A stretch of DNA of 64,000 bases from Cyanidioschyzon merolae (Eukaryota): the NCBI GenBank assembly GCA_000091205.1, contig AP006499.2; one strand, 5' to 3'. Below are positions 19,400 through 52,155 of the stretch, piece after piece (position 1 is the first letter of the stretch; every line of letters begins with the position of its first letter). The notes beneath the pieces were generated by a model. That model did not search any database. It was not told the DNA's origin and saw only the letters and a list, made by a program, of their open reading frames with translations. The position numbers and the translations under genes are program-made.

Positions 19400-19997
19400 A
19401 TGCCGGGGTTTGCTGTGTCGGCGTCTATGGCGTGCACGCACTCGCAGCAATAAGTACACATGCGGGAGCTTTTGTATCGCCAGTAAAATGGACAACATTT
19501 CATGATCATAGAGGGAAAATATATACCTTCTCACAGACGCTTCCCAGCCTTTTTCAATCAGTTGCCTGCTATCGGTTTCAGTGTTTATCCCCGCACGCGT
19601 CGAGCCTACGAGGCTATCCCAAGAAGTTGGATCGCTCCAGCTCCTTGGGTCTCGTCTTCAGTGCGACACACCTTCTGATATTAATGGCGGCGCTGACGTC
19701 TCGGTGCAAGAACTCCACGCGTGCATTGACGCTGGTTAAACTCGCCACTGCAAGGATTGCTGGAAATCGTGCCCTCTGTGTAACTACAGTCTCGTCATCG
19801 TCCCGTCTCGTAAACACCTTTCCTCGCCTGTCTCCTCTTTTTTCTTCTTCGTCACTTGCTCTGCTTCGCTCAATATTCGGCGAGAAGAGAATTTTTTCCG
19901 TTTCCTTCAGGCAGCCAACGATGACGGCCTTCCAGGATCCGGGACTTCCATGCCCATGCTTTGTCCTTGGATTTTTTATTTCTTCAAATGAACGCAC
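19400..19997 (-). mobile_element. 3'-terminal remnant of a TnpB/Fanzor-like element, copy 2, highly degenerate
   Basis: Minus-strand translation ...VEFLHRDVSAAINIRRCVALKTRPKELERSNFLG (RuvC-III-like). Conserved non-coding tail on the minus strand (...tgaaaccgatagcaggcaactgattgaaaaaggctgggaagcgtctg...) shared with copies at 7.6 kb, 31.7 kb and 38.6 kb. Confidence 0.45.
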
Positions 19998-20208
19998 TTG
20001 GGGTCCATCTGCGATAAACCGCGAAAAAGCATTTGCTTACACGCACCTGGGGTCGGAATATCATTGAGGTCAAAGACTAGAAGCAGAATCCTCTGGGTAC
20101 TTACGCGGGGCGTCGTCCCTCTGGCGAACTTGCGCTCGGAGAGGCGCGCGGATTGTTTATGCAGATTCTCGCGTTTCAACGCATATCAAAAAGGTTTCCG
20201 CAGGCCTC

Positions 20209-26880: not shown

Positions 26881-29530
26881 ATTTACTTGTGTCGATGTGT
26901 AGAACAGGTGAGCAGTCCAAAGAGCACACAGCATTGGATGGGTGCGATAGCCATATGGCTATGCTGATGAAGTCTGTGACGAGGTCCCTCTGCTTAATCG
27001 CTGAGAAACTTTTCTCGTCCGATACAGTGCCTTGCATGGGTTTCGGATGTTCGGCTTGAACGCTGTTTCCGTCAAAACGCCGCACGGGTGCAACCGCACG
27101 AAACCTCTCCCAGCCTTTAAACATCTAGGGAGCACCCCCTTTGGATTCTACGCTTCTACCAGCGAGCAAGCAAGAGAGATTTTTGCTGATGATTCAGAGG
27201 CCGTCAGAATAATTAGAAGGGTCTTCCTTAACGTTTACCCGAAAGGCTGTAGCACGCCAGCTCGACAGGAGTCTTCAAAAAAGCTCAAAGTGTTGACAGT
27301 ACGTGAGCGAAGAGCAACTGCACTCATGCAAACGTCTACCCCTACACCGCATGGAGACTTTCCAGTATGCGGGATTCTTGGATACAGCATCCTCCAAACC
27401 AGTGGGAAAATGAATTTTACTTAACGCGTCCTTGAGCCGCCGCCCGCGAGGGTGCTGTAAAGCTGCGCTGCCTCTGTACGACGTGCACAGACCCGCGCCT
27501 CGCACCCGAGAGAGCCCCCACTGGAGACTAGGCTGCTGGAGAGCCGCGTGCTCGATCAAGCCAATATTCCACAGGCGTTTCCATGACTAAAGCTGGCTGA
27601 GCGAGGAAATGCCCGTGGGTGAGGTGAATTCTCTGTTCTGAGCATTGAGAGTACGTCCACATCAGTGGAAACTTTTAGAAGCTTTCATCTAAATGAAATA
27701 ATTAGTGCATTTACCTCATCGGGCTGTGCCCGACTCATGAAATGACTAAGCGTTTGAACTAGACTGTCTCATTTCCGCACCAATGAAATGGCGCTTTTTT
27801 CCCGCGGAGCTGTTTGTTCACTTACGTTGTAGCTGTATATCAACGAATCCAATCATCACTATCCAAAAGCTGAGTTGCAGTTGGATGCTGAGGAAGAAAT
27901 CACTGTAGCAATCGAGGCCTCCGTAAGTTAGACCGACCCCACCCGTGTGTCAGAATAAAACGGAACGTCGCACTGCTCGCTTTTCCCATGCCTTTCTAAT
28001 TTTAGCCCAATCATTTCTTAGATGCGCATCCTCCGCACTCAAACTAAAATAATAAAAGTTTACAGGTTCACTCGTGGTTTTTTTGGATTCTCGTTCGTTT
28101 TTCCGTGGTAGCTTGTTCGACTCTTTGTTGCTGGAATGCGTTTCTTTGTCGAAATCATAATGATTCACGACGCCATTGAACAAGGATTCGTAAAGTACCC
28201 GATTATATTATCCAGTTGATACGTCCAAGATTCCATTTTTCTCCTTTCTTTGCGTCTAGTACGATGAAACAGCGCATTCTTCAAGTGTTTGACCTTTCTG
28301 CTTCAAGACAGCTGGAGCGCGTAGCAACTTGCACCGCTGGATTGACGACGACGAAGAAAATTCGACATCGTCCCTTGAATAGCGTTTCGTAAACGCACGC
28401 CAAACGCTCACTGAACCAATCACAGCAAGTAATCGATGCGGTTCGAAAAGCAAGTCCTTCCCTCTTGATCGCCATCGACGAAACGGGATTCCGCCGCAAT
28501 TATAAGCTATCTCTCACGGGACCCGCTCCCAGAGGCACCCATCTCATTTTCCGCGCGGAAAAGGTTCTTGGACTAGAACTAGAGTCGTCGCTGCGATCGC
28601 TTCCACTCGGGATTCCGTCACCGCTTTGAGCCTGGGGGCGTACACGGATCGAGATCTCTCGAGCGCTTTCACAACCTGGAGCTTCCTTCTGGTACTTGTT
28701 TCAGCATGGTCAACATAGCGTTCCGTGAATCCTCTATCGAATAGAACAGCGAGCACTCGGGCGCGCAGCAGACATAGTACTCGCCAAGTAGTCACCCAGC
28801 TCAAGCACGTCATCGTAGAGTTCGCCGTCGGACCCGGAAACGGAGGAGCGAACGGACAGGACCCTTTTCTGGCTGTCAAATTGGCATGTGCCGAACGATG
28901 AAGAAAGGGTTCATGATCTGCAGGGCGACCCTTTGAGGAACAGTTTTCGGGTATATAGGGGAACACTTGACCACAATCAGATGTCATCGCCGCGATGAGC
29001 GCACCGCGACTTTACGCGAGGAAGACGCAAATGGCAAGCAAAGCGTAGATCGCATCTCCCTTTCGAGCATTAGATGCGTGAGCAGCAGCCGGAAGCAGTG
29101 AAATGGTGGCTTTGACACTGCCATCAACATACTTCTACTTCTGAAAACGGAGCTAGAGGGACAAGAGAATTCTGCGTTGCTACAGGCGCATATGAGAGAG
29201 ACAAGGGAAGTAGTCAAACATCATGCCCGCCAAGACTGGTATTGACGAAAGTGAGAAGCGACCCAAAGCCTAGTCTTTTCTCCCGAGTTAGAGGGTCGGT
29301 CCTCGTTTGTTCAGAAATGAGTGTAGATCTGCCTCCACGTTGGGGGCCTATTAATGAAATGATTCATAATCCGCGTCCTCCTGCTGGCAAACCTGCTCTT
29401 TCTACTTATGGTCTATCACCTCAATTTAGTTCCAATCTCAGGTGAGCGTCATCGAATGCTTTTTCGCAGTTTTCAGCAGGAGCATTGGAGTGCATTCATT
29501 TTGAAGAAATGAATAATCCAAGGTGAAGCT

Positions 29531-31800
29531 ATGGATATGCAGGACAGAGATCCTGTTCACCAAGTGTCGCCGGCTGCCAGAGAAAAGCAAAAAGCAGTGT
29601 CTAGTCCAGAGGAAAAGGAGAGGACAAGAAAGAAACGGCAGGTGGCCCGAAGTCAATGGCCGCAAGAAAGACGAATGTACGACGATACGGTGGTGATAGC
29701 CTGTCTTTTCGGACATATCACGGATACGTACGAGGAAAAATTGCGAGACGCCATCAGAAACCGTGTCGATTCGTACTCCATGAGTACTAGAAAGGCGTCG
29801 TCAGGGCTAATGCATTTGGTGATGAAGATGAACGAAAACGTGACGCACATGGAAACAGTCGCGGTTCCGGACGAGTTTTTCGACAAGACCTTTATTCGTA
29901 ACCTAATGCTTGGCACAGGCGAAACACGGAGAGAAAATAGCGGGTTCACGCCCTCCACGAAAATTATGCCGAACTCCGCTTCGAGGGTACTCGAAACAGG
30001 GGTGACCAGGATATTTACGCATGCGGAGCGATGAAGTATCTCACGAACCTGAAGAACCATTTGACGATGAACCTCGAACGTTCCATGATACGCGCCGTGG
30101 TTGCACTCTACTCGGGCCTGTCTCGCAAAGGACTGCGGGCGATTATCAATGGCATCACGAAGGATCGCAAGCATGAAGATGAGATCGAATTCGTCGACAA
30201 GAAGACGTCACGCAGGAGCACAAATGAAGCGTCTGTAATCCAAGGGGTTATAAAAGAGCGCCGTACAGTGTTGGGGCTGGCGAATCCAGTAGAAGAGGTA
30301 TCAGATATGAAAAAAATGAAGAGAGACACTATCGCCTCGTCCTGCGATATTTCGTGTTTTTGGACCAAGAGGTCGAACGCAAGAAGGAGATGAAGCTGAG
30401 TGAGCAAAAAATGAAGATTGGGAGAGACGGAAGGCTGCCCTGACGGGGAAGCGCTTCAACGTCGATCCGATATGTAACGTCAAGTCATACTTTGTGGGTA
30501 TCGATTCAAGAGTCCTCCATGGAATCATGAAGGAGATCAGTCCGGAGTTCAATGTAAGGAAGATAGAGTTCACTGGTGAAACAAGTGAGACGTACTGGAA
30601 AAACATCTTCGATATCAAACATCTCAAAACGAGCAAGCAAAAGGTATTTACTGGGATGATTGAAACCGATGGAGTAGCCTCGTGTGTGCACTATCGGCGG
30701 TTGAAGAAAGATCGGCCAGTCCCTTCGTCGGCTGCGCCCGTTACGAAGGATGAAGAAAACAATGAGGAGGATCCTGCGATGCAGGAGGTGCAGGATAACG
30801 ACCTTGTCTTTGACATGACGAAGGATGAAGAAAAGAAGAAGGCGGATCCTGCGATGCAGAAAACGCAGGATAACGACTTTGCCGTCGGCGTGGACCCTGC
30901 GAATACGAATGTCATAAGTATCGCAGTACCTAAGCGTGCGGAAAACGGTACTGACGGTAATTTACGTCAGAAAGACATGCGTCTGTTGAGATTCTCGAGA
31001 GCGAGATTCTATTGGGAATCGGGAATAATGAATGCGAGGAAGAAAATCGACACTTAGAATGCAGGAATGAATAATCACCTGGAAGCTTTGAGCGAGGTGA
31101 CTAGCCGAGGAGCGTACTATGAAGCCTTTCGGAAATTCATGGAAGTTCGTGTTGCCCACTGGGATGCGCTGTGGGAAGAGTATACTAAGCCCCGGTGGGC
31201 TCTTTTGCGAATGAATCTATACGGTGAGAGGCAGCGGGCGTTCGCGAATCTTTTCAATCAGTTGAGCGCCCTCAAAGAGGATCAAAGTCAGAGGCTGGTA
31301 GTGGCATACGGAGCACGGCGATGGAAGACCAAAAAAGGGTATACGCCAGCTCCAACGACAAGAACGTACAAGGATTCCGCAAGGCGTTTCGTCACGATAC
31401 CTCTAGATGAGTTTCGAACATTGCATACACACCATGAACTGGGGTGTACATTTCAGAGAGTGGAGATAGAAAAGTGCCAGAGGAGCCCTGAGGATATAAA
31501 AAAGTATGGACCGCTGACGGAAGAGCAAATGGAAAGGATTTCGAAAGTTCGTGGACTACTTGCATTAGTAAGTAAAACCAGTGATGGTAAGAAACGTATG
31601 GAGTATGTGAACCGAGATTTTAATGCCGCTATCAATATTAGGGAATGTGCGGTGCTGGAGAATAGGCCTCCAAAGTAGACAAGAGAGAACTTTATTGGAC
31701 AACCTCTCAAAGTGGAACTATATGAGAGAAAGTTGGAAGCAGTGGTGGATGCCCGGTCCGAAAAGACGGGGAGGCGTCTGCACGTCAGCTGGAGAGGATT
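29531..31800 (+). mobile_element. Near-full-length TnpB/Fanzor-like RuvC-nuclease gene (OMEGA-type), disrupted. ORF pieces are 29531..30034, 30031..30393, 30494..31057 and 31067..31678; likely a pseudogene, or a gene with short introns.
   Basis: RuvC-I-like ...FAVGVDPANTNVISIAV... Then ...GYTPAPTTRTYKDSARRFVTIPLDEFRTLHTHHELGCTFQRVEIEKCQ... (the TnpB 'DPAYTSQxCxxCG' region with a zinc finger). RuvC-III ...RMEYVNRDFNAAINIRECAVL... An in-frame TAG at 31055-31057 separates the last two pieces in the same frame. Protein-level similarity to copy 4 continues past the stop at 31676-31678 (TRENFIGQPLKVELYERKL vs TRVNFVGQPLRIELYNDKL). Confidence 0.55.
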
Positions 31801-31836
31801 TGTCTAAGGCGCGCTGATCGCCACTACTGTCCACCG

Positions 31837-31870
31837 CCGGCGAGCACGCGCTCGTGCGCGTGCTCGCCGG
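31837..31870. repeat. Perfect GC-rich palindrome / hairpin (15-bp stem, 4-nt loop)
   Basis: ccggcgagcacgcgc-tcgt-gcgcgtgctcgccgg. The two arms are exact reverse complements. It lies ~40 nt past the conserved 3' segment of the Fanzor-like copy and ~90 nt upstream of the PPR ORF. Confidence 0.8.
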
Positions 31871-31958: not shown

Positions 31959-34391
31959 GTGAATTCGGGAAAGATGCGGGAATCAAAAATTTGCAAGCCA
32001 CGTGCGGTCTGCTTTCTGACGCCCTCAACAGCGTCGGCCACGCCAGCTAGAGGAAAGCCGACTCGAACTGCGCAATGTGAGACGCGCCCACAGCAGGACC
32101 TTGGGACGACAGAGTTCGCGGATGAGCAGGAGATCTCGGTAGGAGGCTTGGTTGACTCAACGTCTTCACGTGCGCAGCGGACCTGTGACTCATCAGGAGC
32201 GGTGTGTATTGAGCCCGTTTCAGAGTTCAGCGAGAGGCTTGTCGTGTCCACTGAAACGAACCCGCGTACCGAAGGTAACTGGTATTTTGAGCTTCCCTGG
32301 CCAGATGGAGGACTTTGCTCCCAAGACCAGGGAGGCGCTTGTAGAAAAGCTCCAGATGTTCGTCTTCCGCGAGGCGCCGCCCAGGGTGGGGCAGCTGCTA
32401 CGAGTGTACTGCTGAAGCACTCGGCTAGTCTTTCACGAGACTCGAGTTCTGCGAGGCGCCAGACGAAACCGGGCCCGTCCCAGACGGTTGCGTCTTTTCT
32501 TTTTAGCGCTCAAAAAGTGGTTGACGCTCCCCGGAATTTCTTCGTATCAAGCTGCGGATATGTTGCGAACGAGCCTGATTCAGCGAAAAATCTCTCAAAT
32601 TGCTGGCAGGTACCTCTCGAAGGTGCCTCAGACAAGCCTGCGGTCTGGAGGCAAGACGTTCAGGAAACTTCTCATGGTTATGAGTATTCTCTTGCGACAG
32701 AGCGTGTTGCGTTTGAAACTGCATCCGATGTGCTTGCCGATGAGGAGCAGAAATTATTCAACCAACAAGAATCGAGCCATCCTACAGTGCGGGACAACAT
32801 GTCGCCATCCTTCTCCACAAGCGGGGACTCTACGAACGAGGATCCTGAAAGGAACGAAATTACTCGTTTCACGCCACCAAGAGCTCCAGCTTCGAAGACA
32901 TCGTATGAGCGCAGACTTGCTGAGAGCAGGAATCTGTTCCCCGTTTCAAATCTGAATGTTGCAGATGCAGACCTCAGATCTCCGTTACATAGAAGCGCTT
33001 CACAACATCGGAGCGATGGAAGCCTAGCACCTCAAGTAAGAGAAATCAGATCTACACGACAGCTGAATAAGATACTCAGCGCACTATACAAATCAGGTCG
33101 GGCAGCGGATGCACTCAGTTTGTGTAGAATTGTGGAGAGAGAGGGACATATTGAGATAGATGTAGCATCCTACTCTATCCTTATCTCGTGTCTTGGGAAA
33201 TGCGGCGCGTCGGCACAAGCAATCGAAATGTTTCACAAAATGATAAGAAATGGCGTAGCGCCCAATGCATTCACGTTTTCAGCGCTCTTCGGAGCGTTGA
33301 CTGACGGTGCCTTCTTCGATCAGGCAATGCGGCTCTTTCAGATGATCAGAGCAAGCTATCCCAATGAGCTTAATGTCGTAGTATACAATGCCGTTCTGAA
33401 ATACGTGGGCCGGGCGGGCAGAATCGACGCAGCGTTGGATCTACTGGGGCAGATGGAACAAAACCGGAACGTGCAACCAGACATCGTAACATACGGGACA
33501 ATACTCGATATTTGCGCAAAGAAGCAAGACGTCTCGCTGGCGTATGCGGTTCTCGATCGGATGCGAAAACGTGGCATGCGACCGAACAACTTCTGTTACG
33601 CGTCTCTCATTGACGCATGTGCACGTGCGGGTCTCCCGGACCAGGCCGAGTCTCTGTTCCGGCAACTACGAGCCGAAGGCCTGGAGTACGACTTGTTTAT
33701 CTGCAATGCCCTGCTTGGCGCTTTCGCCCGGGCAAAAATGGTGGAGCGAGCTTTTCAGGCCTTCGAGGAAATGCGCAGCGCGGGCGTGCGAGGAGATCGC
33801 ATCACCTTTAACACCTTGATCACCGCAGCGGCGCGTGCACGCGAGTTCGACAAAGCCTGGAAAGCTTTCGAGACGATGAAAAAGTCGAACATTTCTGCAG
33901 ACGCAACGACATACAATGCTCTGATTGATGCCTGTAGCAAGAGCGGCATGACTGAGCTGGCGTTTGCGCTTTTCAACGAAATGCGCCAAGCTCATCTGCA
34001 GCCGACGATCTTTACCTTCAATGCTCTCATTGGAGCATGCACGAAATTACAGGATATGCGCAGAGCCACGCAGGTTTTAATGCTCATGCATGGCTTTGGT
34101 GTGTATCCGGATACATTTACACTGAACATTCTTTTAACAGCATGTGCGCGGAACGAAGACTTTGACTATGCGATAAGTTTGGTTCGGGAGTTCGAAACGA
34201 ATTATCGCGTTCGCCTGGATCGCCTCGGTTCTAGCATTGTAACAAACCTTTGCATCAAAGCGTGCGACTCTCAATCAAGGGACCGTTGCTTGAGGCTTCT
34301 TGAGGCTGCAGTACTCGAAGGCTACGAAACATTACGAGAGGTTCGAGATCGAGCTCGTAGCGCTTTCGCAAACCCAATGACTGGCTCATGA
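31959..34391 (+). CDS. Pentatricopeptide-repeat (PPR) protein with a long low-complexity N-terminal extension (organelle RNA metabolism)
   Basis: From ~aa 360 onward there are >10 tandem 35-aa PPR motifs (e.g. VASYSILISCLGKCGASAQAIEMFHKMIRNGVAPNAFTFSALFGAL...; ITFNTLITAAARAREFDKAWKAFETMKK...; TTYNALIDACSKSGMTELAFALFNEMRQAHLQP...). The true start may be downstream of the first ATG. Confidence 0.75.
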   Translation: MNSGKMRESKICKPRAVCFLTPSTASATPARGKPTRTAQCETRPQQDLGTTEFADEQEISVGGLVDSTSSRAQRTCDSSGAVCIEPVSEFSERLVVSTETNPRTEGNWYFELPWPDGGLCSQDQGGACRKAPDVRLPRGAAQGGAAATSVLLKHSASLSRDSSSARRQTKPGPSQTVASFLFSAQKVVDAPRNFFVSSCGYVANEPDSAKNLSNCWQVPLEGASDKPAVWRQDVQETSHGYEYSLATERVAFETASDVLADEEQKLFNQQESSHPTVRDNMSPSFSTSGDSTNEDPERNEITRFTPPRAPASKTSYERRLAESRNLFPVSNLNVADADLRSPLHRSASQHRSDGSLAPQVREIRSTRQLNKILSALYKSGRAADALSLCRIVEREGHIEIDVASYSILISCLGKCGASAQAIEMFHKMIRNGVAPNAFTFSALFGALTDGAFFDQAMRLFQMIRASYPNELNVVVYNAVLKYVGRAGRIDAALDLLGQMEQNRNVQPDIVTYGTILDICAKKQDVSLAYAVLDRMRKRGMRPNNFCYASLIDACARAGLPDQAESLFRQLRAEGLEYDLFICNALLGAFARAKMVERAFQAFEEMRSAGVRGDRITFNTLITAAARAREFDKAWKAFETMKKSNISADATTYNALIDACSKSGMTELAFALFNEMRQAHLQPTIFTFNALIGACTKLQDMRRATQVLMLMHGFGVYPDTFTLNILLTACARNEDFDYAISLVREFETNYRVRLDRLGSSIVTNLCIKACDSQSRDRCLRLLEAAVLEGYETLREVRDRARSAFANPMTGS

Positions 34392-34802: not shown

Positions 34803-36043
34803 AGCACCCGCCGTAGCTCGGTTGCAAGGGACTCCACCCCCGCCCGGTCGACCGCTCGCCAATCGTCCGGCCGCATGCAGCGTCACTGGCGGACCCAAGT
34901 ACCAAACGCCCCGTGCGAAAGGCACAGCGCCATCGCCGATGGCCCGGGGGCCGCTGCGCCGGCGCACTGACACCCAAACAAGATGCGTCCCGCCTTTACG
35001 CTCCATGATTGATGAATCTAGCCTGACCTTCCCGGATGCGCGCATGCTCTGGCGAGCAACAGCGGTATACGCCGTCAGCTCCATCCGTGTGCCATCGCCA
35101 GCCGCAGCTTTCGCCGCTCGCGCGCGCACGCACGAGCATGGCTGCGGACGCACACGCACGCCATGCGCATCTCAGCTATCATAGGCACAGGGAATGAACG
35201 TCGCTGGTGCGGCCGCGCGCTACCATATCGTGCAGCCGCATTGCAAATCAAGTCGCACACGCATCACCCGATACATGCGACGTCTGGCGCCGCTGCACGC
35301 TGCCCACAAATCATCGCAACATGATCGGAACTTGCCAGCGCCGGTGAATCTGCATGCAGCGCGCCACAGTCCAGATATGAGTACGAAGCGGGACTTTCGC
35401 GCTCTGTATGGTCGATCCCAACTGTAGCGTACAGCACGTCAACTGGCGGTCCACAGAACGGCGCATCGATTCCGGCTTCGTTACTTTGCAAAACGCTACA
35501 AGCGTCTGCGCGGTTGAGTCGCTCCTGCTGCGCGGACGTTACTGCATATGCCCCTGTTGCGTCTTTCTGAGACTGCATAGTGTGTGCGTAGACGCACGCA
35601 GGCGCACATCGCGGGCGTTGTCCATCCGGTCGCTCTTCAGCATTGCATTTCAGTAGCATGTGCGCCGCACATCAAACATGAATCTATGCGTGCGCATCGA
35701 GCGCGGCTTCCTCGGAGCCCAGCTTCCGCTGCAACGGAACACGCCGCAGCTGTGGGCAGAGGCGCGCTCATCGCCAGTGATGAGCGTACATGTGTCGAGC
35801 TGTTATTCGAGCGCACACAAGGAGAACTTGCATGCCGAGAATTTTCGCTCAGGGTGCCCTGAGATGGTGCTCGTGTGGGGTCATCAGGCGGACCCAGCAG
35901 TTCCTCCGTTCCATCAAGAGCCGAGTGAATAGCGGAGACTACAAGCGCTACCGAGTGACCCATGAGGCATCGCATGCTCCAGGCGCAGACGCTAGCAGTC
36001 GGGGCGCGTGCAGCGCAAGTGTCATATCAGGAGAGATGGTTTC
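34803..36043. repeat. Inverted-repeat arm A (~1.24 kb), partner of 39800..41037
   Basis: Reverse-complement identity is seen through identical or near-identical ORF translations on opposite strands (e.g. 35637..35975- equals 39868..40206+; 34788..35159- equals 40684..41073+), with only a few substitutions. The boundaries were mapped by loss of complementarity. Confidence 0.8.
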
Positions 36044-36618: not shown

Positions 36619-38538
36619 CTAAAAAGCCGGCAAGAATGCCTTGTCGCGTGCCAGCGGATTTGCTCTGCCATCTTGGGGTCCATTTCTGAGCATCTGAAGA
36701 ATCAAGACGGATGATAAAATGAAACCGATGTGACGCACTCGGACGTGTGATGGCACTAATGATCGCACTTTCAGACGAGGACGATCGCGGTTTCTCAGAA
36801 ACACATTTTCACCAATGGTCACAAAACGATCGAGGAAAGAGATCCCGTTGGGAAGAATCAAATTACCCGCCGAATCCCGCGGACAAGACTCCGAGTTTTC
36901 GACTACACAGACAGGAATGAATATATCCCTTCGACCGGATACGCGATGTACTTCCTCTTGTGCAAGATGCATCCTTCTAGCAAGATTCTCTTCAAATGTG
37001 AGGCCCTCTGGAGGGAGCGCATACCCATGTGTGAAAACCAGTATGCATCGCTCCCATACTCCACCATCGAAGAGACTCTTCAGTTCCTCCAAAACTAGCC
37101 TGAAACAATGGGATCGGTACGAATCCAGTCGCTCTATAATGCAGACAATGTCGATTTCCAAACCGCGAAGCGCAGCTGCGACACTCTCGCATGTTCCAGC
37201 GCGGCTCCATTTCTTAGAATCCTCCCCAGCTTCATCGTAAAAATATTTTTCAGAGGAAGGGATCTCAATCAAACGCAGAGACATCCCTTCCTTTTCTACA
37301 GGATAAATCAGAACGTTTTCGTTCGGCGAAGGAACGAATTCAGTCTTGCGATTTGGATGCGCTCTTTGTTCCCTTTCACGTTCATACGATCGCTCTTCTA
37401 TTACTTCGAGCCCATGCTCTGGATCTCGTTCTAAAATCTCATCATCCGATAGTATGAGAGCCATGGTGTGGTTGGTTCGTGCGACAGGGCTTCCAAGAAT
37501 GCGGTTAATTGTGGCAGACTTTCCTGCACCGATCGTGCCAGCGAAAAGAATAGTGGCATCTCGAAATGGAGAATGCGCGCGAACGACGTCCACTAATTGA
37601 TTTACAGTGGCGCACCCTGGCCGCGAATCATTCCCAAAGCCGCGAATGATTTCCTCATAGTTCCTTCTTTGGAGACCGACTTGCTTCATGCAAGCTGTGA
37701 ATGCTTCCGAGTCCGTCTTTTCGGCGTAAGCACAAAGCACTTTGCACGCAAGGTGCAGATTTTTTCCTTCAATAACGTCTTCTGGCTCAAACAGTGCATT
37801 GGCATCGAGCCCCGCATTCCGTGCAGAATCCAGAAAGAGCTGAATGCACCGCCGCATGCTGTCCAAATTCCGTGCATCTCCAGAGCACGGAGCGTCTATT
37901 CCGGCAATATGCAAGAAAACGTTAGGGTCGCTGAGCACAGCCCGAAGCCCGTTTGAAGAAGATTCCGATGCGCCTGTTTTTCGTGCGATCCACAACAGGC
38001 AGAGCCTTTCCAAGGCTTTTTCAGTGGCATCTGGAATAGCTCCCCAAGGTTGCTCCCCACAGACCTCCGACAGCGAAGGCTTATCAGAAAGCGTAGGGCT
38101 GGGCCCCTGCTGCCAACTCGACCCAGACTCTTTGAGATCTTTGCTATATGGCGCTGGGCTTGTCACCACGAGTGCTGCGAGACGAGACAGGTTAAGCTCT
38201 TGCTTCACGTGTATACCCATGTTGTAAAGATGTCGCTCATCGGATATGAAGAATTCTCCGTCAGCTGCGTTTTCCGCTCCGTGTCCTTCAGATTCCGTGC
38301 CTTTTCGGGACTGGCTAAGCACCCCTGGAAGAAGATTACGCCGAAAGAGTTGGCGCCGACGTGACCGAGTTCGTCCTGTGGAAGGCCTCGAGCCTCTCGT
38401 GGTTTTATCCGAGTCGGCTGTGCGCCGGCCAGAGACGTCGCGCCTTTCAGCAGCATCATCACCGCGAGGCTCGACACGCTCTGCAAAATCCAGTCTGACT
38501 TGTTCTCTAGTCTGCGGAGAGGTAAAGCTCTCCGTCAT
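36619..38538 (-). CDS. Toc34/Toc159-family GTPase (chloroplast outer-envelope translocon receptor-like; AIG1-type G domain) with an N-terminal extension
   Basis: G1 motif FAGTIGAGKSATIN. Then ...IDIVCIIERLDSYRSHCFRLVLEELKSLFDGGVWERCILVFTHGYALPPEGLTFEENLARR..., which aligns closely with Toc34 (IDVLLYVDRLDAYRVDNLD..GKGIWNKAIVALTHAQFSPPDGLPYDEF.SKR). The annotated N-terminus (38507-38538) overlaps the TnpB-remnant tail, so the true start is probably an internal Met. Confidence 0.6.
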   Translation of the reverse strand: MTESFTSPQTREQVRLDFAERVEPRGDDAAERRDVSGRRTADSDKTTRGSRPSTGRTRSRRRQLFRRNLLPGVLSQSRKGTESEGHGAENAADGEFFISDERHLYNMGIHVKQELNLSRLAALVVTSPAPYSKDLKESGSSWQQGPSPTLSDKPSLSEVCGEQPWGAIPDATEKALERLCLLWIARKTGASESSSNGLRAVLSDPNVFLHIAGIDAPCSGDARNLDSMRRCIQLFLDSARNAGLDANALFEPEDVIEGKNLHLACKVLCAYAEKTDSEAFTACMKQVGLQRRNYEEIIRGFGNDSRPGCATVNQLVDVVRAHSPFRDATILFAGTIGAGKSATINRILGSPVARTNHTMALILSDDEILERDPEHGLEVIEERSYEREREQRAHPNRKTEFVPSPNENVLIYPVEKEGMSLRLIEIPSSEKYFYDEAGEDSKKWSRAGTCESVAAALRGLEIDIVCIIERLDSYRSHCFRLVLEELKSLFDGGVWERCILVFTHGYALPPEGLTFEENLARRMHLAQEEVHRVSGRRDIFIPVCVVENSESCPRDSAGNLILPNGISFLDRFVTIGENVFLRNRDRPRLKVRSLVPSHVRVRHIGFILSSVLILQMLRNGPQDGRANPLARDKAFLPAF

Positions 38539-38824
38539 TTACGGTGCCCTGGAGGTGTCGAGTCCTGCAACTATGCACCTGAGACGCAGCTGAACGAAGC
38601 CCAAACGTTCTGCAGAATCTGAGTAAATTAATACCGGCGTGCAGACGCATACCAACTTTTTTTGACCGTCTCCATGCTATCGGTTTCAACTTGTCATTGT
38701 ACAGCTCGATCCTGAGAGGTTGCCCCACAAAGTTGACTCTTGTCAGCTCCTTGGGTCTCATTTTCAGCACCGCACATTTTCTGATATTGATGATGGCATG
38801 GAAGTCTCGGTTCACGAACTCCAT
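38400..38824 (-). mobile_element. 3'-terminal remnant of a TnpB/Fanzor-like element, copy 4
   Basis: Minus-strand ORF MEFVNRDFHAIINIRKCAVLKMRPKELTRVNFVGQPLRIELYNDKLKPIAWRRSKKVGMRLH.. (RuvC-III plus a conserved tail). The downstream nucleotides ...agttgaaaccgatagcatggagacggtcaaaaaaagttggtatgcgtctgcacgc... match the tails of copies 1-3. Confidence 0.5.
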
Positions 38825-39799
38825 GCGTTTATTGCCTCTGGATCAACGCACTATTGCTAGAGTTCCTCGAACTCGTACCCACTGTCCCACTACAGTCTCG
38901 TCATCCTCCCGTTGGGCATACATCTTTTGCTCAGTTGGCTCCCCTATTTTTCTTCGTCTTCGTTATTTCCTCTTCTTCGCTGCATGGTTGGCGAGAACGA
39001 GATGTTCCGTTTATTACTGCAGTCATCGATGACGGCCCTCAAGGATTCGCAAATTCCAGATCCATAACATTCTCACAGATTTTTACTTTTGGAAAAGAAC
39101 GCACTTAGAACGTATTTACTGAAACCTGGGAAAAAGCATTTGCTTACGCTCATCTGCGGACGGAACACAGATGAGGTGCAAGCCTCGAAATGACGCGATC
39201 GCAAATTTGCACAGTCCATTCGGTTTGGAAAGTCTTGATTAGAAAGTCTTCTGCTCTACTAGAACGAATCCGGATATGCTTGGGAGGACGCTGAGTTTAT
39301 TAAAGTCAAAAGTGGCCAGAAGTGCCCCGTTTCTTCACGCGAAGCATGGACCGCAGAACTACTACAAAGGAAACCGCTGTCGTCGGCTGGGTCGACACAC
39401 GCGCAAGGGTGGGTACGTCGTAGACCACGCAAACAAGGTCCCTGACTTCAGAATACCGCAAATTCCAGAAGATTTTCCACTGAAACCATATGTTGCAGTT
39501 GGTTCGTAAAGGTTTCTGGGGCTACGTTTGGACACCTTTCGTCGTGGCGAGGGAAAAATCTGCAGGGAGTTTCAAATAACGCTGCAATATGGACGACTAT
39601 GATGAGAAGACGCTTCTTTCCCCAACTGAGGCGCAACGGTTTTTACACCACTGCCAATATGACGATTAAGGCAAGTACTTACCTCTGAGAGTCCTGATGC
39701 AACCCTGTCAAAAACATATAGCGCAAAAGCACGAATAAGGTCACGGTCCTTCTGTGAGTGGCAGTATTTCACAACGTTGAGTTTTACTCGAAGCAGCTG

Positions 39800-41037
39800 G
39801 AAACCCTCTCTCCTGATATGACACTTGCGCTGCACGCGCCCCGACTGCTAGCGTCTGCGCCTGGAGCATGCGATGCCTCATGGGTCACTCAGTAGCGCTT
39901 GTAGTCTCCGCTATTCACTCGGCTCTTGATGGAACGGAGGAACTGCTGGGTCCGCCTGATGACCCCACACGAGCACCATCTCAGGGCACCCTGAGCGAAA
40001 ATTCTCGGCATGCAAGTTCTCCTTGTGTGCGCTCGAATAACAGCTCGACACATGTACGCTCATCACTGGCGATGAGCGCGCCTCTGCCCACAGCTGCAGC
40101 GTGTTCCGTTGCAGCGGAAGCTGGGCTCCGAGGAAGCCGCGCTCGATGCGCACGCATAGATTCATGTTTGATGTGCGGCGCACATGCTACTGAAATGCAA
40201 TGCTGAAGAGCGACCGGATGGACAACGCCCGCGATGTGCGCCTGCGTGCGTCTACGCACACACTATGCAGTCTCAGAAAGACGCAACAGGGGCATATGCA
40301 GTAACGTCCGCGCAGCAGGAGCGACTCAACCGCGCAGACGCTTGTAGCGTTTTGTAAAGTAACGAAGCCGGTATCGATGCGCCGTTCTGTGGACCGCCAG
40401 TTGACGTGCTGTACGCTACAGTTGGGATCGACCATACAGAGCGCGAAAGTCCCGCTTCGTACTCATATCTGGACTGTGGCGCGCTGCATGCAGATTCACC
40501 GGCGCTGGCAAGTTCCGATCATGTTGCGATGATTTGTGGGCAGCGTGCAGCGGCGCCAGACGTCGCATGTATCGGGTGATGCGTGTGCGACTTGATTTGC
40601 AATGCGGCTGCACGATATGGTAGCGCGCGGCCGCACCAGCGACGTTCATTCCCTGTGCCTATGATAGCTGAGATGCGCATGGCGTGCGTGTGCGTCCGCA
40701 GCCATGCTCGTGCGTGCGCGCGCGAGCGGCGAAAGCTGCGGCTGGCGATGGCACACGGATGGAGCTGACGGCGTATACCGCTGTTGCTCGCCAGAGCATG
40801 CGCACATCCGGGAAGGTCACGCAAGATTCATCAATCATGGAGCGTAACGGCGGGACGCATCTTGTTTGGGTGTCAGTGCGCCGGCGCAGCGGCCCCCGGG
40901 CCATCGGCGATGGCGCTGTGCCTTTCGCACGGGGCGTTTGGTACTTGGGTCCGCCAGTGACGCTGCATGCGGCCGGACGATTGGCGAGCGGTCGACCGGG
41001 CGGGGGTGGAGTCCCTTGCAACCGAGCTACGGCGGGT
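39800..41037. repeat. Inverted-repeat arm B (~1.24 kb), partner of 34803..36043
   Basis: See arm A. Near-perfect reverse complement. Together the arms bracket a 3.76-kb unique core holding the Toc-family GTPase gene and the TnpB remnant. Confidence 0.8.
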
Positions 41038-42253
41038 GTGCTGTATTTAGTTTTCATGGGTCGGAGGAGGTAACCTTCGCGATGCCGCTCCATGCGTCGC
41101 GACCGTATTGGAGAGAGCCACATTGTACCAATTGGCATGATGAACTGACCCGTTTGCGTAGATGCAACTAGCATTGAAAGAAATCGCAGCACGACTTCAT
41201 GAAGGATCCGAATCACGAAAATCGATACCACAGATTAATTGAACTTCCTCCAGTGCGCATTGGCCTTCTACACGGAGAATGGAGTATACTACACCGACGT
41301 CGAACTGCGCGACAATCTTCCATCTATTCGTCTTCATAGTCCAATCGGATAGATTACACCCGGGGTCCGAGAAAGATCCCTCAATTTTTGTGCGGGGCGT
41401 CGAGTCCACTGCGTCCAGTTCATTCTGTTCAGGGATCGTCTCCCTTTAGCTACGGCACGCATGTCCAACGCTTCGTGCATGATTGCGAAAAGGGTCTCAT
41501 GGAGGCTGAGCCCCCGATAGACGAGACCCCAATCAGTTCCGGCCAAAATGGTCGCGAAGTATTGTTGCTACGCAGGTTGCCGCACCCTCTGGTGGGACGC
41601 CTACTGCCCGCCAGCGAACGCGAGCGCTCCTATCTAAAAAATAGACGTAAGCGCTAAAACGGTTTTCGATGTGTAAAAGGCTTAGAAACTCCGTGAAAAG
41701 TTTGTCCTTCCGTGAAGGTGTGTAAATCAGACTCCCAGCAGGCAGCAACTGTTTCTGAAAACCTACCAGAAGGCGATCAAGCAGCCTTTCATTTACTGTT
41801 AACTCATATATGGGAAGTCTTTTTTCTGCCTCAGTCAGAATTCCGCGCCATGTGTCTAGTGCCTGTTGAGAAAACGCACGAAAGCCCAAAAGAAGCCAGC
41901 TTTCCTGCTTCCCTCCACTGGTAAGGTATGCGCGAGAGTCCTTAACGACAGTGCTTTTCCCTGCAACTTCGAATGCGATTTCCGGAAAGAGCCGCGCTTC
42001 CTCCGTTCGGATAAGACTAGGCAACAAGAAACTGTCCTTTAGACCGCGGATAACCTTCGGCGACAACCTAGTCATGAAACCAGGACGCTACGAGGCGCAT
42101 ACAGACGATAGAAATTTTGCCCGCATTCTAGCCACACGCCGCTCGCTCGCCGAAATGCACTGCAGGCAGCTGCTAAATAGATGACAAACGCTTAAATGCG
42201 AAGCAAAACAGACGCTGCTACAATGATCCATCGACGGCTTCTCGGGGCATTCG

Positions 42254-44872
42254 TTATGGAAACTCATAGGCGACTTCCAAAAGAGCAAAATCACATCCCG
42301 GTGCCGCGCGATACAGAGCCAGCAGGCAAGCCATTGGTTTGTTACGAATAGCGGCGAGTCCCTTCTCACGTAGCGAGCCGCGCAAGCTTGCGCCGAAGCG
42401 ACCCAGAAATGCTGTGCGTTTGTTGTAAGTTTTGGCGATCCCTGACCCGAAAACAGTTCTTCCAGGGGTGATGACGACAGGGATCCAGCTATTGTTGTCA
42501 TTCAGAGCGCGAAGGTGCCCAATGTGAATCTCATCGAAGTAAACAGTAGCGAATGAGGATCCTGCTAGCCCTAAAGCCTTCGCTTCCTCGAGCTGAGCCT
42601 TCTCAGGTTTTGAGGTGGATCTGAAGCACGAAAGATATCCGTATACCAGAACCTCTCGTCTTTCTCGTAGAAAGATTTCCGACTGGACTGCTCTAAGTCG
42701 CTCAAACTCAATGCAAAGGTTTTCAATTTTCTCCTGGCCTCCATACAGTGCTGCTAATTGCTCTAGCGTGTCAGTGTATCGAAAGGTGCTATGCTGGATC
42801 CTTCCAAGTGCGAATGTTTGACGTATCTTGACAGATTTTTTCCCCTCCGAGGATTGAATCCATCGAGCTAATGCCAGTATACGACGAACAAGACGATCCT
42901 GCAGAATTACTTTCGGAATATTTTCAGGGAGGCTCGTGCCCTCCGTTCTTTTTTGCTGTTCTCTTACTCCATCTAGCAGGTACATTGAGGTCCATCGGGT
43001 CGAATGTACCTCCATGATGCTGACACCATCAAAAGGAGCATTGTACAGCTCTCGCTTTTCGAGGGATGTTAGCAGGATTGCCGCACCTGGAACGCAGATA
43101 GCATCAAATGCATCGCGTTGGGAGGTTTCATAAAGGCGAATGCAGACGTCTCGCGCTTCGGATCCATCGCGCGCCAAAATGATTCTATATTTCCTAAAAA
43201 TGTAGTAGTCATCTGATGCACTCAGTATTTGCGGTGCACTCGTCCGTTCTGCAGACCTGTACGTCCCGCGCTCTCGATACAGAGGTGACACATGTGTCAC
43301 AATGCATGCTAGAGAGAAATACGAGCGGTCGTCCCATGCATCCAGAGCGCTGGTAAGAATGCAGGGGTGGTAGAGTTCACCCGTTCGACCACCGCCAAGC
43401 TTTGCAATAGGTCCGAAATCAAGTAACTCCTCATAATTATCTGAAAGCTTCCGAATAATGCCCTGGGGCGATGATGCATTCAGGTGAATCTCGCCTCTGC
43501 GTACACGGTAATTCTCTATGATAAGGATGTCACCGAGTTGAATGTGATAAAAATATTTGGAACAAAGCGAATTCCACACGACAACAGTAGCAGAATCCGC
43601 ACCGTCACCTATCTCAAATTCGAATTTGAATGGCACTGACTGCCGCATGTCACTCTTTTTCGGCCATGGCATTAGGGACGTCTTTCTGAGGACGCGCCCG
43701 ATGATTGGTCGCTTCACGTCTCCCATCAGCGCCCTGGCGATGCGCACCGCTGCACTAGTGACTGATTTAATCGAAGCTGGGTCTTCGACACGCTCTACGT
43801 TGCTAGGGTCTCGCAATCTGGAATCGACAGGTAAGGCATCAAACGCTCCAGGACCAAGATAACTCTTTCTCGACGATGCCAAAGGGACATTTGCAGCAGT
43901 CTCAAGCGGGGTGGATGACGTTGTCCAAGCGCATGTCAGGGGAACGTCTATCCAAAAATCCTCGTGGGGTCGACGTAGTACGAGACAGTCATACACAACG
44001 ATTACTCGAGGCGGGTAGAGTCCGCGCAATTCGTTGAAACGAACTGACCATTTTCTTATTTCTAAAATGCTCCCTCGATCTAGGTCACCGGACTGGACGA
44101 TTGAATTCAAATGTGGGTGTAGGCAAAAGCGTGTTTTCGTCTGCTCAACCGGATTGCAGACGGTAATGTCATACGCATCTGCATCCATCTCAGGGATTTC
44201 ATCTTTTGTGCCGTTGACCGTAAACCAATAGGCTTGATCCCGGATATAATGCCGGACGCATAGAACTAGGAACACGATTGAACCGCGGCATTCTTCCCCA
44301 GGAGCACACTCGTGGAGCTTTTCCGTGCCAGCAGTCGTGAATATTTGGTCTCGTTCCTTTGGCTCTGAAGAGCCGCTCTGAACCAGGCTTGAAGAGGCTG
44401 AAACCTGACCTGTGTTGGACTTTGCAAGCTTTTGATTTGCGACTTTTAACGTGCCCTCCCTCGGCCGCTTGCGCTGGTTTCCACGGTTTCCAGTCTGTCG
44501 CTTGCTGCGTGAGTCCCGCGAGTCAGACCCTTCGACCTGTACTGTACGATTCTCTACAGCCTTCTGCAGCGGCTTTGCTCGACTCTTTTGCAGCTCTTCG
44601 TCTTGCCTCCTTTGGAAAATAGGTTTCACATAGTCATCAGCCTTGGTGTCGCCGAAGCGTCCACTTTTACGAGGCATTAACCGTTCTGTACGAGAACGTT
44701 TGTTGTTTTCTCGGATACACTCGCAATCAGAAATTTGCGCCACATTCAAATTGGGCGCGTGCTGGACAGATGGTGCATCATAAGCACAGGATGTATCCAG
44801 CTGCGCGCAGCTTCCGCCTATATCAGTCAAAGATAGAATAGACCCCGTGAGGAAAGTCGGACGTACTCGCAC
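42254..44872 (-). CDS. Large hypothetical protein with possible OB-fold-like segments (RMI1/RPA/CST-like?); function unassigned
   Basis: 872-aa uninterrupted ORF with a basic/acidic low-complexity N-terminal third. The C-terminal part (...SFATVYFDEIHIGHLRALNDNNSWIPVVITPGRTVFG...) looks like a nucleic-acid-binding OB-fold, but I cannot place it. The first ~22 codons (44805-44872) lie inside a dispersed repeat, so the true start is probably an internal Met (~44677). Confidence 0.4.
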   Translation of the reverse strand: MRVRPTFLTGSILSLTDIGGSCAQLDTSCAYDAPSVQHAPNLNVAQISDCECIRENNKRSRTERLMPRKSGRFGDTKADDYVKPIFQRRQDEELQKSRAKPLQKAVENRTVQVEGSDSRDSRSKRQTGNRGNQRKRPREGTLKVANQKLAKSNTGQVSASSSLVQSGSSEPKERDQIFTTAGTEKLHECAPGEECRGSIVFLVLCVRHYIRDQAYWFTVNGTKDEIPEMDADAYDITVCNPVEQTKTRFCLHPHLNSIVQSGDLDRGSILEIRKWSVRFNELRGLYPPRVIVVYDCLVLRRPHEDFWIDVPLTCAWTTSSTPLETAANVPLASSRKSYLGPGAFDALPVDSRLRDPSNVERVEDPASIKSVTSAAVRIARALMGDVKRPIIGRVLRKTSLMPWPKKSDMRQSVPFKFEFEIGDGADSATVVVWNSLCSKYFYHIQLGDILIIENYRVRRGEIHLNASSPQGIIRKLSDNYEELLDFGPIAKLGGGRTGELYHPCILTSALDAWDDRSYFSLACIVTHVSPLYRERGTYRSAERTSAPQILSASDDYYIFRKYRIILARDGSEARDVCIRLYETSQRDAFDAICVPGAAILLTSLEKRELYNAPFDGVSIMEVHSTRWTSMYLLDGVREQQKRTEGTSLPENIPKVILQDRLVRRILALARWIQSSEGKKSVKIRQTFALGRIQHSTFRYTDTLEQLAALYGGQEKIENLCIEFERLRAVQSEIFLRERREVLVYGYLSCFRSTSKPEKAQLEEAKALGLAGSSFATVYFDEIHIGHLRALNDNNSWIPVVITPGRTVFGSGIAKTYNKRTAFLGRFGASLRGSLREKGLAAIRNKPMACLLALYRAAPGCDFALLEVAYEFP

Positions 44873-47635
44873 TATATTCTGGACCTATTTTGCACGACCA
44901 TCAGCACAAGTCATTGCAGTTTGCACCGCGACCGCTTCCTTCTCCTTTCCCGTATCTCCGACTTTCAATACGCTGGCGTCTCCTAGCCCTCCAGCTTCGA
45001 TGTCAGCAGGCGAAGGATGCCGATGGCTGCGTTCATTCGAACCCAGAGTTTCCTGCTTCCAGCCCTCATCGACGTACTTCATGCAAAGGCGGAAGTTGTG
45101 ATCTGCGCTTCTTTTAGCATTTTCATCCTTTTTGTCCACAACTCCGGTGCACCCTTCGCAGCGAGGACACTTGCCCGTTGTCCGGTGCCGCCATACGTCC
45201 ATCGCACGTCTTGCTCCGAGTGCCGCCCTGTGGCGCATGCCTGCTTGCAGTGTCGCTCGGTACACGCCCTCGACGGGTGCAGAGCGCTCCGCTCCATGCG
45301 CTCTTCAGTTTCTGTGCCCAGCGCCATACCCTGCGATCACAGGCTCGGGCTGGGCGATCCCCGCGGCAAGCACCCTCACTGCTGGGCGCGTAAACGCTCG
45401 CTGCTCGATTCGAGTACTCGGAATCCGCTCCCTCGCACGCTCTTCGTTTTTCGCGTACGCTTCCCATCGAAGCTGCCGACGAGCATCACGCGACTCGAGG
45501 TGCCGTGCCAGCTCATGAGTATTGTGCGCGCAGGTTCCATCCACTTGCGACGATGCGGGTCAGCCATCTGCGACTCCCTTCGTCTCCGGTCGCTCGCTCG
45601 CTCGCTTGCGTGTTCTTCTATCCCCATACTCGTTCGCTTCCGCTTCAGCGAAGATGGCAGGCGCGGGAGGAGAAGTCACGACTGTGGGCGTAACTCGGAC
45701 GTTTCCGATCCCGTGCCCCGGGACGGGGTGTCGGTTTCCACATGGGCGTCGGGCTTCGCCTCGGGTCTCACGGAGGCGCTGGTGCAACGCTTCGCTCTCC
45801 TTGGGCTCCTGCCGTTGCTAAGTGCACTGGATTGCAGGTTCACGAGGCCACGCATCTGTACAGCTTGCTGCTCATCGTCGCCGTGTTTCCTGTTCTGAGC
45901 AGGGGTGCGTTGGAGCTCTGATGGGGCCTTGAGGCATGTAGGGCGCTCACGACTGATAGCGGTGGATGCTGCCAGGCCATCGGTCTCGAACGAGGACACC
46001 ACGCCTCCTCGACTTTATGTGAGCGTTCTGTTTCTATCTGTTCCCTGCCTGTCGCATCTCTCTTTAGCGTCGTTCGCTTTTCGTTCCCCCAGCGGTTCAT
46101 GAGTGTCTCCGAAGTTTCGGGCGAAATTTGCGTAGTACGCTTCATGTACTCTATGCTGTCGATGGATACCTCCTCTTCTTCGATGTGCTCCTTGGCCTCC
46201 ATAGGACGTTTCCATGCCCTAATCCCTCGTGCGTGGGCGCCCACTTCGCAGCGAGGCGAAAAAGCCGCGAACCGGGGCGCGCGTACGAGCGACCTATAAA
46301 TGCGTTTACAGCAAGGCGAAAATCCATTCCATTCAGGGGCTCTGGAACAGTTCCCGAGGTGCAGAGGCTGTTTCACTCGCTCGGGTAGGCACTCGCAGGC
46401 TGCAGGTCTATAGTCTCCTCGACATGTTCGTCTTCCAGGATACTCAACGGAGGCTCACGCGCTCTGTATATCCGCCCAGCATATTCAAGTCGGCGAAGCG
46501 CCCGTCATGAAGAGCTCGTCCATGCCGTCCAGGCTGGTATCTGAGTCGTCATCCGCACGTATCCACGTCATCGAATCCTTCACGCGCCATGGGAATGAAT
46601 GCTGGCATGATCCAGGGTCGCGCGGCGTAGTTTTCCGCCCATATACACCTTTGAGTTATCCAGGCTGATTTGGGTCGCGAAGCGAATGCTGGCCTCGAAA
46701 TGCGCAACGTCGTTCGGCTATGGAGCCAAAGTGCCCGCGACGTCGATGAAAGCACAGTGCAGGTGAGGTGTGTCCCGACTACGCTTCGAGACAGTGACGG
46801 CATGAAAGGCCATCGATGCCAACGGTGCATCTACGAAGTTGTTCGGTTTCTCAGGGACCCCGATGCACTGGACGTACACGGTCCTAGGCAGGAGGTAAGC
46901 GCGCCACTGACGCATGCTGCAAAGAAGCGCATGTTTGCGGACGCGGAATCTGATATCCGGCGGGTGCGGGTGCATTTCGAAGTATCCCTTGCCGACAGTG
47001 GTGCCGTAGAATACCTCATACAAACAGCGAAGGAGGGAGTTTCCGAGATCGTATCCCGTGAGATGTAGCGCACTGCTTATTTGGGATGTGGTTTCGTTGA
47101 TGGTTGGAAAGCGAGAATATTTTGTGTTTCAAACGGAATCGATTATATGAGGTGAGGATTTGAACATACTTTCGGTATGAGCTCTTGAAGAAGTATTCGC
47201 ACGAAAACTTCCAACTTTTGCGTCGTCAACCGAGCGTAGCGGCCTGGTGCGCCCACGAGTAGCCTTGAAACATGGAGATCGGAAGCGTGCAGAATGCCTG
47301 ACTTGAGCGTGCAACGCGTAACTAAAGGAAAAGAGTTCAGGCTTCCTTGTACGAATTGCATCATGATATCGGCTATTTTAGGCAACGGTATGTGAGGATA
47401 TCTCGAATCACCTTGATGCTGGTGATGTAACGAATCCCTTCGGTGCAAAGTCGAGGGAGCCACTTTGAAGAGTCGACCGAGAATCCTAGAACGATGCATG
47501 AGTCCTGAGGCCCTCATTGCTGGACTATGAATACTCGGGTCCTGCATCTGAAAATGAGTTCGGGTGAAAAATCGAAATCGAGGAACACAGGCAGCAGCTC
47601 CGTGTTCTACTTCACTCCGACCCGGGTGCCGACTC
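44805..47635. repeat. Unclassified ~2.8-kb GC-rich dispersed repeat, copy 1 (full length)
   Basis: Identical ORF-track translations recur at 50.6-52.0 kb and 60.1-62.9 kb (e.g. the 293-aa ORF at 45017/50774/60270). End points were mapped where the copies diverge. There is no long conserved ORF and no recognisable transposase, RT or LTR/TIR structure. Confidence 0.75.
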
Positions 47636-51950: not shown

Positions 51951-52155
51951 GTTCTAACGCGGCCTCAAAACCTTTTTCTTGATCGCGGGACACCTACTTA
52001 GCTGGAACATTGTATGCAAAATCGCTCATGTTTGTTAATACAGAGACCCCGGAGGCACATTCACATGCACGTTCGGGCCCACATTCTCATTCGAAAAAAC
52101 TAACATACAAGTAAGTTCCACAATGCCAAATCTGGCGTGGTTTATGGCGGTACAA

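Follow-up and report, generated by a model that had tools for sequence, protein, structure and literature searches.

Near the middle of a 64,000-nucleotide stretch of DNA from Cyanidioschyzon merolae (contig AP006499.2 of the GenBank assembly GCA_000091205.1; this whole stretch is hereafter called the window), a broken reading frame carries motifs of the TnpB/Fanzor nucleases. The question that this locus raises is whether it is a gene whose pieces are joined by introns, a recently inactivated gene, or something else. A first-pass annotation of the window had described it as a Fanzor/TnpB-family RuvC nuclease gene that is inactivated and lies in eukaryotic nuclear DNA. Our analysis supports this description, as the significant matches in the protein data bank (PDB) were to Fanzor1 chains only, the active site could be aligned, and the surrounding genes are those of the host. 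Moreover, we can state with high confidence that the locus at 29407-31842 (+) is a decayed, 5′-truncated copy of the C. merolae element CMe-1A, whose only gene encodes a Fanzor1 protein.

Identity and extent of the locus

One Fanzor1 family, CMe-1, has been reported from C. merolae, where its carrier is the ~3-kb element CMe-1A, present in about 150 copies (Bao and Jurka, 2013, Mob DNA 4:12; PMC3627910). These copies are roughly 80% identical to their consensus, and some of them are still intact (PMC3627910). Using the CMe-1A consensus DNA and the CMe-1 protein consensus from the supplement of that paper, we found by blastn that the degenerate copy in the window (29407..31842, +) corresponds to positions 786-3145 of the 3169-bp consensus, with 82.6% identity over 29407-30812 and 87.1% identity over 30816-31842. 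The nucleotide similarity thus extends over most of the consensus, as expected for a CMe-1A copy in the C. merolae genome. Consensus positions 1-785, including the 5′ 635-bp part that resembles TE-N2_CMe, had no match at 29407-31842 or elsewhere in the window, and the element is therefore not complete. Matches to metagenomic copies run out at nearly the same places (29452-29460 at the 5′ end and 31841-31843 at the 3′ end; nhmmer and blastn). The start of the locus, which had been placed at 29242, moves accordingly to about 29407, where the homologous element begins.

The gene itself is a Fanzor1 pseudogene at 29531..31807 (+), which reads as 759 codons once three 1-nt repairs are made. From end to end, the repaired translation (residues 1-759) is 75% identical to the CMe-1 protein as published (residues 1-734), the sole gap being an additional 25-aa repeat unit, and the ATG and final stop coincide with those of the CMe-1 consensus. 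Without the repairs, the reading that bears the motifs is frame 2 of 29531-31678, and the coding signal appears as open reading frames (ORFs) spread over frames 2, 1, and 2. Because both the CMe-1A DNA and the CMe-1 protein consensus match the window, the locus is assigned to a family already published in 2013 (CMe-1/CMe-1A), to which it adds one more dead copy.

Assignment to Fanzor1

A database search returned 43 close homologues of the protein (E-values down to 1e-294; 46-75% identity), of which 42 come from metagenomes of the Joint Genome Institute (JGI), and these are annotated at most with the weak tag PF26935/DUF8286. At a cut-off of E ≤ 1e-3, an exhaustive profile search gave 2024 cluster representatives with a typical length of 600-700 aa. 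Matches of this strength and number lie well outside what chance would give. The similarity of CMe-1 to the solved Fanzor1 proteins is very low, such that a single sequence finds nothing in the PDB: phmmer with the intact homologue P0001 gave no match there, and a profile of the 43 close homologues gave only a marginal match to SpuFz1 (E = 0.53). The decisive profile contained 72 relatives and was built by adding 71 diverse representatives with 25-40% identity to P0001. Searched against the PDB, it matched PpFz1 from Parasitella parasitica (PDB ID: 9CF0; E = 8.9e-23), SpuFz1 from Spizellomyces punctatus (PDB ID: 8GKH; E = 7.7e-16), and GtFz1 from Guillardia theta (PDB ID: 9CER; E = 1e-10). Beyond these three Fanzor1 chains, the remaining PDB matches lay at E ≥ 1 and included no TnpB or Cas12 chain.

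There is thus significant homology to characterised Fanzor1 proteins, which extends from the REC/WED region through RuvC to the C-terminus and includes the motifs DPG, DE[FY][RK]T, GLL, and NRD that are common to the CMe-1 family and the solved nucleases. The profile comparison that the first-pass annotation had proposed was borne out in its Fanzor part, with the family profile matching Fanzor1 structures; a Pfam TnpB-domain match above threshold did not appear. Here, Pfam gave no match for the four ORF pieces of the window and no significant one for the close homologues, and the relatives reached the Pfam domain Cas12f1-like_TNB (formerly OrfB_Zn_ribbon) only below threshold (best E = 0.0023). 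From these profile matches, we assign the family to Fanzor1, a group of eukaryotic proteins related to the bacterial TnpB and Cas12.

Catalytic residues

The active-site residues of SpuFz1 are D383, E541, and D606 (PMC10432273), which, as chain 8gkh_P is numbered as native SpuFz1 +394, appear there as D777, E935, and D1000. The two aspartates have clear counterparts in the window. The GVDPANTNV motif recognised in the first-pass annotation is present in frame 2 at 30887-30913, and its RuvC-I catalytic Asp codon, GAC (30893..30895, +), falls in the invariant column D484 of P0001, which is aligned to D777 of 8gkh. Likewise present in frame 2 is the NRDFNAAINI motif (31610-31639), in which the RuvC-III catalytic Asp codon (31616..31618, +) corresponds to D725, found in 71 of the 72 relatives and aligned to D1000.

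The glutamate of RuvC-II, which had been described as not evident, requires more comment. The sequence LVVAYGA does lie at 31295-31315 with a glycine at the canonical position (31310..31312, +), and in the alignment of relatives this glycine (G623) is invariant (72/72). Situated 33 residues downstream of G623, E656 is likewise invariant (72/72) and is aligned to E935 of 8gkh; its codon in the window, that of the alternative (rearranged) catalytic Glu, lies in LDEFRT (31409..31411, +). According to Jiang et al. (PMC10530073), Fanzors have Gly or Pro at the canonical RuvC-II Glu site and use an alternative Glu further downstream, and some TnpBs also have the rearranged glutamate. Because the canonical site is an invariant Gly and the downstream Glu is invariant, just as described there, the missing glutamate is the published catalytic rearrangement of Fanzors and not a defect. 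The family motifs at the three catalytic columns are GxDPG (D484), vDEFRT (E656), and NRDxNAAxNI (D725). RuvC-I, alternative Glu, and RuvC-III align in this order, residue for residue, with D383, E541, and D606 of SpuFz1. The RuvC-I Asp, the rearranged RuvC-II, and the RuvC-III Asp of a Fanzor1 are each found, and all three catalytic codons survive in the window copy. Between positions 645 and 735 of P0001, other conserved residues in the clade are C645 (58/72), C708 (53/72), C735 (62/72), and H663 (26/72).

Lesions of the window copy

With an intact homologue as the query, tblastn returned four collinear pieces in frames 2, 1, 3, and 2. In place of the two frame breaks that had been reported at 30031 and about 30400, which are ORF ends and not lesions, we find three 1-nt deletions, all supported by tblastn and by alignment with eight paralogues. 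The first (29938..29939, +; frame 2 to 1) is a gap against all eight (AAAAT-AGC), the next lies at the end of an A-run (30315..30316, +; frame 1 to 3), and the third within an A-run (30408..30409, +; frame 3 to 2). As each break amounts to one base missing relative to the eight paralogues, they are evidently point lesions and not introns, and the intron alternative in the first-pass annotation is rejected. Adding one base per deletion site yields the 759-codon reading, broken only by TAG codons at 31055 and 31676.

The in-frame TAG at 31055..31057 (+) had been noticed and is real. It is a nonsense codon derived from TGG (Trp), which is found in 70 of 80 related loci, with TAG in three; the residue concerned, Trp538, is near-invariant across the wider family in the 72-sequence alignment. 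The TAG at 31676..31678 (+) had been taken as the natural stop, yet both the consensus and the repaired reading go on to the position of the TAA at 31805..31807 (+), the former ending in ...HVSWRRFV and the latter in ...HVSWRGFV. This early TAG stands 43 codons ahead of the consensus stop and occurs in 8 of 44 aligned copies at a codon that is Leu in the consensus and variable in the family (TGG, TCG, or TTG in most copies without TAG).

Compared with the CMe-1A consensus, the window copy thus lacks the first 785 bp, has three frameshifts and two premature stops, carries a second 75-nt repeat unit, and ends in an unrelated perfect hairpin of its own in place of the final 24 bp. It cannot make a Fanzor1 protein and is a dead pseudogene. 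That it is inactivated had been stated correctly; that this happened recently is not clear, given a divergence of about 13-17% from the family consensus, which is near the ~20% reported for typical copies (PMC3627910).

The tandem 75-nt repeat (30743..30892, +) encodes two acidic 25-aa units (TKDEE..DPA.Q..QDND..V) directly upstream of RuvC-I, with 81% identity between the units. Its copy number varies, being one in the consensus, two in the window, and four to six in some metagenomic copies, including P0001 and P0008. Just inside the 5′ edge of the element, at 29439-29470, the sequence AG/GTGAGC...TTTTTCGCAG resembles a 28-nt mini-intron with a donor, pyrimidine tract, and acceptor, of which the TTTTTCGCAG part is also kept in other copies. 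As the genome is poor in introns, this likeness is probably coincidental.

Genomic setting and alternative explanations

Around the element, the window contains genes for Sin3 (1068-5720, -), a PPR protein (31959-34388, +), an AIG1-type GTPase (36619-38535, -), and a light-harvesting complex (LHC) protein (49675-50319, -), with a CLC channel among the other neighbours. The Sin3, PPR, LHC, and GTPase genes are as the first-pass annotation had stated, and the eukaryotic nuclear context derived from them holds. In fact, because the product of the LHC ORF matches chain 4 of a photosystem I structure from Cyanidioschyzon merolae (PDB ID: 6FOS) with 100% identity along its 214 residues, the window is identified as C. 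merolae nuclear DNA. The GC content of the element resembles that of the nuclear genes around it.

Two other explanations would leave the gene functional, or nearly so. Were it a live Fanzor gene, its frame breaks would be spliceosomal introns or programmed frameshifts, a notion favoured by the three intact catalytic codons, by a GT...AG pair at 29442-29469, upstream of the ATG, and by the introns in some Fanzor genes of other eukaryotes (PMC10530073). However, each break is exactly one base short with respect to the eight paralogues, without any insertion that might be an intron; moreover, the Trp-to-TAG change at 31055 lies within well-aligned coding sequence. Very few introns exist in C. 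merolae. As both the intact paralogues and the published consensus (734 aa in a single exon, entered as '734 (1)' in the supplementary table of PMC3627910) consist of one exon, we regard a live gene as very improbable. Homopolymer errors in sequencing or assembly, behind which the real locus would be nearly intact, draw on a point that does count against our own reading, in that every one of the three deletions falls within or next to an A-run, so that assembly errors are conceivable in principle. The TGG-to-TAG substitution cannot be an error of this kind, and neither the truncated 5′ end nor the divergence from the consensus fits a nearly intact locus. The 25% amino acid divergence even includes conserved sites (DPG to DPA, and TS to TL after DEFR), and most family members elsewhere are broken as well, which together make this explanation improbable.

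The other two concern the nature of the gene. A bacterial TnpB of the IS200/IS605 type, brought in by contamination or recent horizontal transfer, might be suspected since Fanzors derive from TnpB, since relatives of the window protein match Cas12f1-like TNB weakly, if below threshold, and since end hairpins without terminal inverted repeats (TIRs) give the element an IS605-like form. Against this, the significant PDB matches were to Fanzor1 only, and in the window pieces and relatives scanned there was no Pfam TnpB-domain match above threshold, no TnpA partner, and no bacterial context, the neighbours being C. merolae nuclear genes of similar GC. Furthermore, the protein is ~750 aa long with a long N-terminal region of Fanzor1 type, and ~150 diverged copies occur in the C. 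merolae genome (PMC3627910). The probability of a bacterial origin of this sort is close to negligible, in keeping with the first-pass view of a eukaryotic family member as opposed to a bacterial insertion sequence. Domestication of a Fanzor-derived gene for a cellular function could account for Ka/Ks values below 1 among intact copies and for the coding capacity that, according to Bao and Jurka, was long retained. Yet the window locus is disrupted five times, and the family, with its many scattered and mostly degenerate copies and its internally deleted derivatives, behaves like a mobile element and not like a single conserved host locus; a domesticated gene is thus very unlikely. A decayed CMe-1A copy with a Fanzor1 gene remains our reading of the locus.

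The 3′ end and the putative ωRNA

Downstream of the early TAG, a 3′ end module (31679..31870, +) would be the ωRNA-coding region, a role inferred from other Fanzors, whose ωRNAs are encoded where CMe-1 elements carry their conserved 3′-end sequence. In the window copy, this module closes with a perfect 15-bp hairpin (31837-31851 paired with 31856-31870, with a loop of 4), whose sequence (31837-31870) is unique to this copy and stands where the consensus has its final 24 bp. Most copies have a hairpin at their extreme 3′ end, with a helix that differs per subfamily (CGTTCGA/TCGAACG, AACGTTTTTC/GAAAGGCGTT, and that of the window) and in which G-U pairs are abundant. In 32 of 43 copies, the sense strand of the hairpin folds more stably than the antisense strand; the means are -19.3 kcal/mol (sense) and -15.4 kcal/mol (antisense). 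When the lower stem of the terminal hairpin was checked manually, compensation proved inconsistent between subfamilies, and we make no claim of covariation. The terminal hairpins and the parallel with other Fanzors speak for a putative ωRNA in the 3′-terminal part of the element.

Proposed mechanism for intact copies

For intact copies, a mechanism can be drawn from the Fanzor1 systems that have been solved and tested (PMC10432273, PMC10530073). In such a scheme, the intact CMe-1 protein would fold as a WED/REC/RuvC nuclease, with a predicted active site made up of the GxDPG aspartate, the 'rearranged' DEFRT glutamate, and the NRD aspartate. The RNA bound by this protein would be an ωRNA read from the 3′-terminal part of the element, namely the ORF tail and the terminal hairpin, and this transcript may continue into the flanking DNA, which would provide the guide. 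The complex would then cleave matching DNA beside a short adjacent motif, perhaps helping the element to persist or spread.

Several results weigh against this picture or against the assignment on which it builds. The foremost is the zinc finger. A 'zinc-finger segment' had been noted between the RuvC motifs, and its sequence TIPLDEFRTLHTHHELGC is indeed present in frame 2 from 31394, though without the canonical cysteines. The four-cysteine (CCCC) zinc finger of SpuFz1, PpFz1, and TnpB was not found in the clade in the 72-relative alignment. Unlike in the solved Fanzor1 proteins, all four cysteines are replaced in CMe-1 and most of the clade, the sites aligned to C942, C945, C980, and C985 of SpuFz1 being H, L, L, and S in CMe-1, and only the third being mostly Cys among the relatives (53/72). 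With this zinc finger missing, even the intact copies encode no more than putative nucleases. Moreover, an AlphaFold2 model computed on the shallow 43-sequence alignment reached a mean predicted local distance difference test score (pLDDT) of only 35 and a predicted template modelling score (pTM) of 0.20 and was discarded. As for the RNA, RNAalifold on 44 3′ ends gave hardly any consensus structure, with nine weak pairs, a result that indels in the terminal hairpin make uninformative; the 3′ region of a typical copy folds no better than shuffled sequences (z = -1.1), and an Rfam search found no match. Nor is the 3′ non-coding region better conserved than the coding one, an idea we considered and rejected on values of 0.78 and 0.68 versus 0.81-0.83. 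Finally, no transposase, TIRs, or target-site duplications (TSDs) were found that would point to a mechanism of mobility, in agreement with the 2013 paper (PMC3627910).

Among the known systems, Spu-1 has 30-nt inverted repeats, whereas neither the window copy nor CMe-1A, its own family in the same host, shows TIRs. The TSDs of CMe-1A were also undetermined in the original description, where its 5′ 635 bp were reported as common to TE-N2_CMe (PMC3627910). With the bacterial TnpBs of IS200/IS605 and IS607, CMe-1 would share an ancestral RuvC nuclease family, and the absence of detected TSDs recalls that TnpB elements have none. Bacterial TnpB elements encode their RNA guide at the 3′ (right) end, where that of CMe-1 is only presumed to lie. 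In contrast to bacterial TnpB, CMe-1 has no TnpA partner, is ~300 aa longer, and is located in a eukaryotic nucleus.

The CMe-1 family and its relics in the window

Outside the genome of C. merolae, a metagenome scan revealed relatives encoded in 378 stretches. The contigs that bear them are long (up to 160 kb) and eukaryote-like and come from a handful of samples, in which Cyanidioschyzon-like algae with numerous CMe-1 copies are evidently present (JGI loci L002-L081). As the pairwise identity of the metagenomic copies is just 60-86%, the family appears to be old and diversified, with no recent burst. An open stretch of at least 650 codons is found in only 6 of 58 distinct full-length metagenomic copies, and two of these six (L039/L040) appear to owe it to another reading frame. 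Ka/Ks among intact copies is 0.4-0.5, pairs with L039/L040 having been left out, as their longest open stretch is not the Fanzor frame. The family is multi-copy and mostly dead.

Four further relics lie in the same window. Two of them, at 19515-20082 (-) and 38626-39205 (-), are internally deleted CMe-1A derivatives of ~570 bp, in each of which consensus ~788-969 is joined to ~2840-3087, without the Fanzor ORF. They are ~70% identical to each other, are similar to the Spu-1 'ghosts' described from S. punctatus, and may carry the 3′ RNA module without an ORF. A third relic (7358-7737, +) retains only the 3′ part (consensus ~2737-2971), that is, the end of the ORF plus some downstream homology. 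The fourth (10516-11265, -) is a highly decayed Fanzor-like sequence with ~32% amino acid identity to CMe-1 over 239 residues, whose motifs survive only in the degraded forms LIDQFFTAS (Glu to Gln) and FLHRDLKISTNV. This relic stems either from a much older insertion or from a second, divergent family; only one family is listed for C. merolae (PMC3627910).

All three window copies that keep a 5′ part begin at consensus ~786-825, with 5′ ends at 29407, 20079, and 39150. The metagenomic copies have a common leader from ~640, upstream of which stand several alternative modules, each in 17-31 loci, and the 5′ region of the family looks modular or composite.

Apart from these relics, GC-rich stretches of the window hold segmental repeats of 1.2-2.8 kb with 99.3-99.9% identity, within 30 kb of each other. 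Two pairs are direct (44858-47621 with 60111-62874, and 44803-46194 with 50560-51951) and two are inverted (54028-55394 with 56856-58222, and 34805-36043 with 39800-41038). Three of the segmental repeats have an ORF of the same length, 293 codons, without a Pfam match, and the inverted pair 34805-36043/39800-41038 brackets the AIG1-GTPase gene together with one ghost element.

Implications

Rhodophytes are among the Fanzor hosts of later surveys. We tentatively consider that the CMe-1 lineage and the metagenomic clade of 2024 representatives may form a Fanzor1 branch without the CCCC zinc finger that is still a working RNA-guided nuclease in the thermoacidophilic Cyanidioschyzon. Its ωRNA would end in a G-U-rich hairpin, and the ~570-bp ghosts might be additional guide-RNA genes served in trans by a few intact proteins; we hold this scenario to be rather improbable. 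Fanzors are eukaryotic RNA-guided nucleases of interest as compact genome editors, and, if this scenario is true, CMe-1 would represent a Fanzor that is adapted to heat and acid, has no zinc finger, and uses an ωRNA not described so far.

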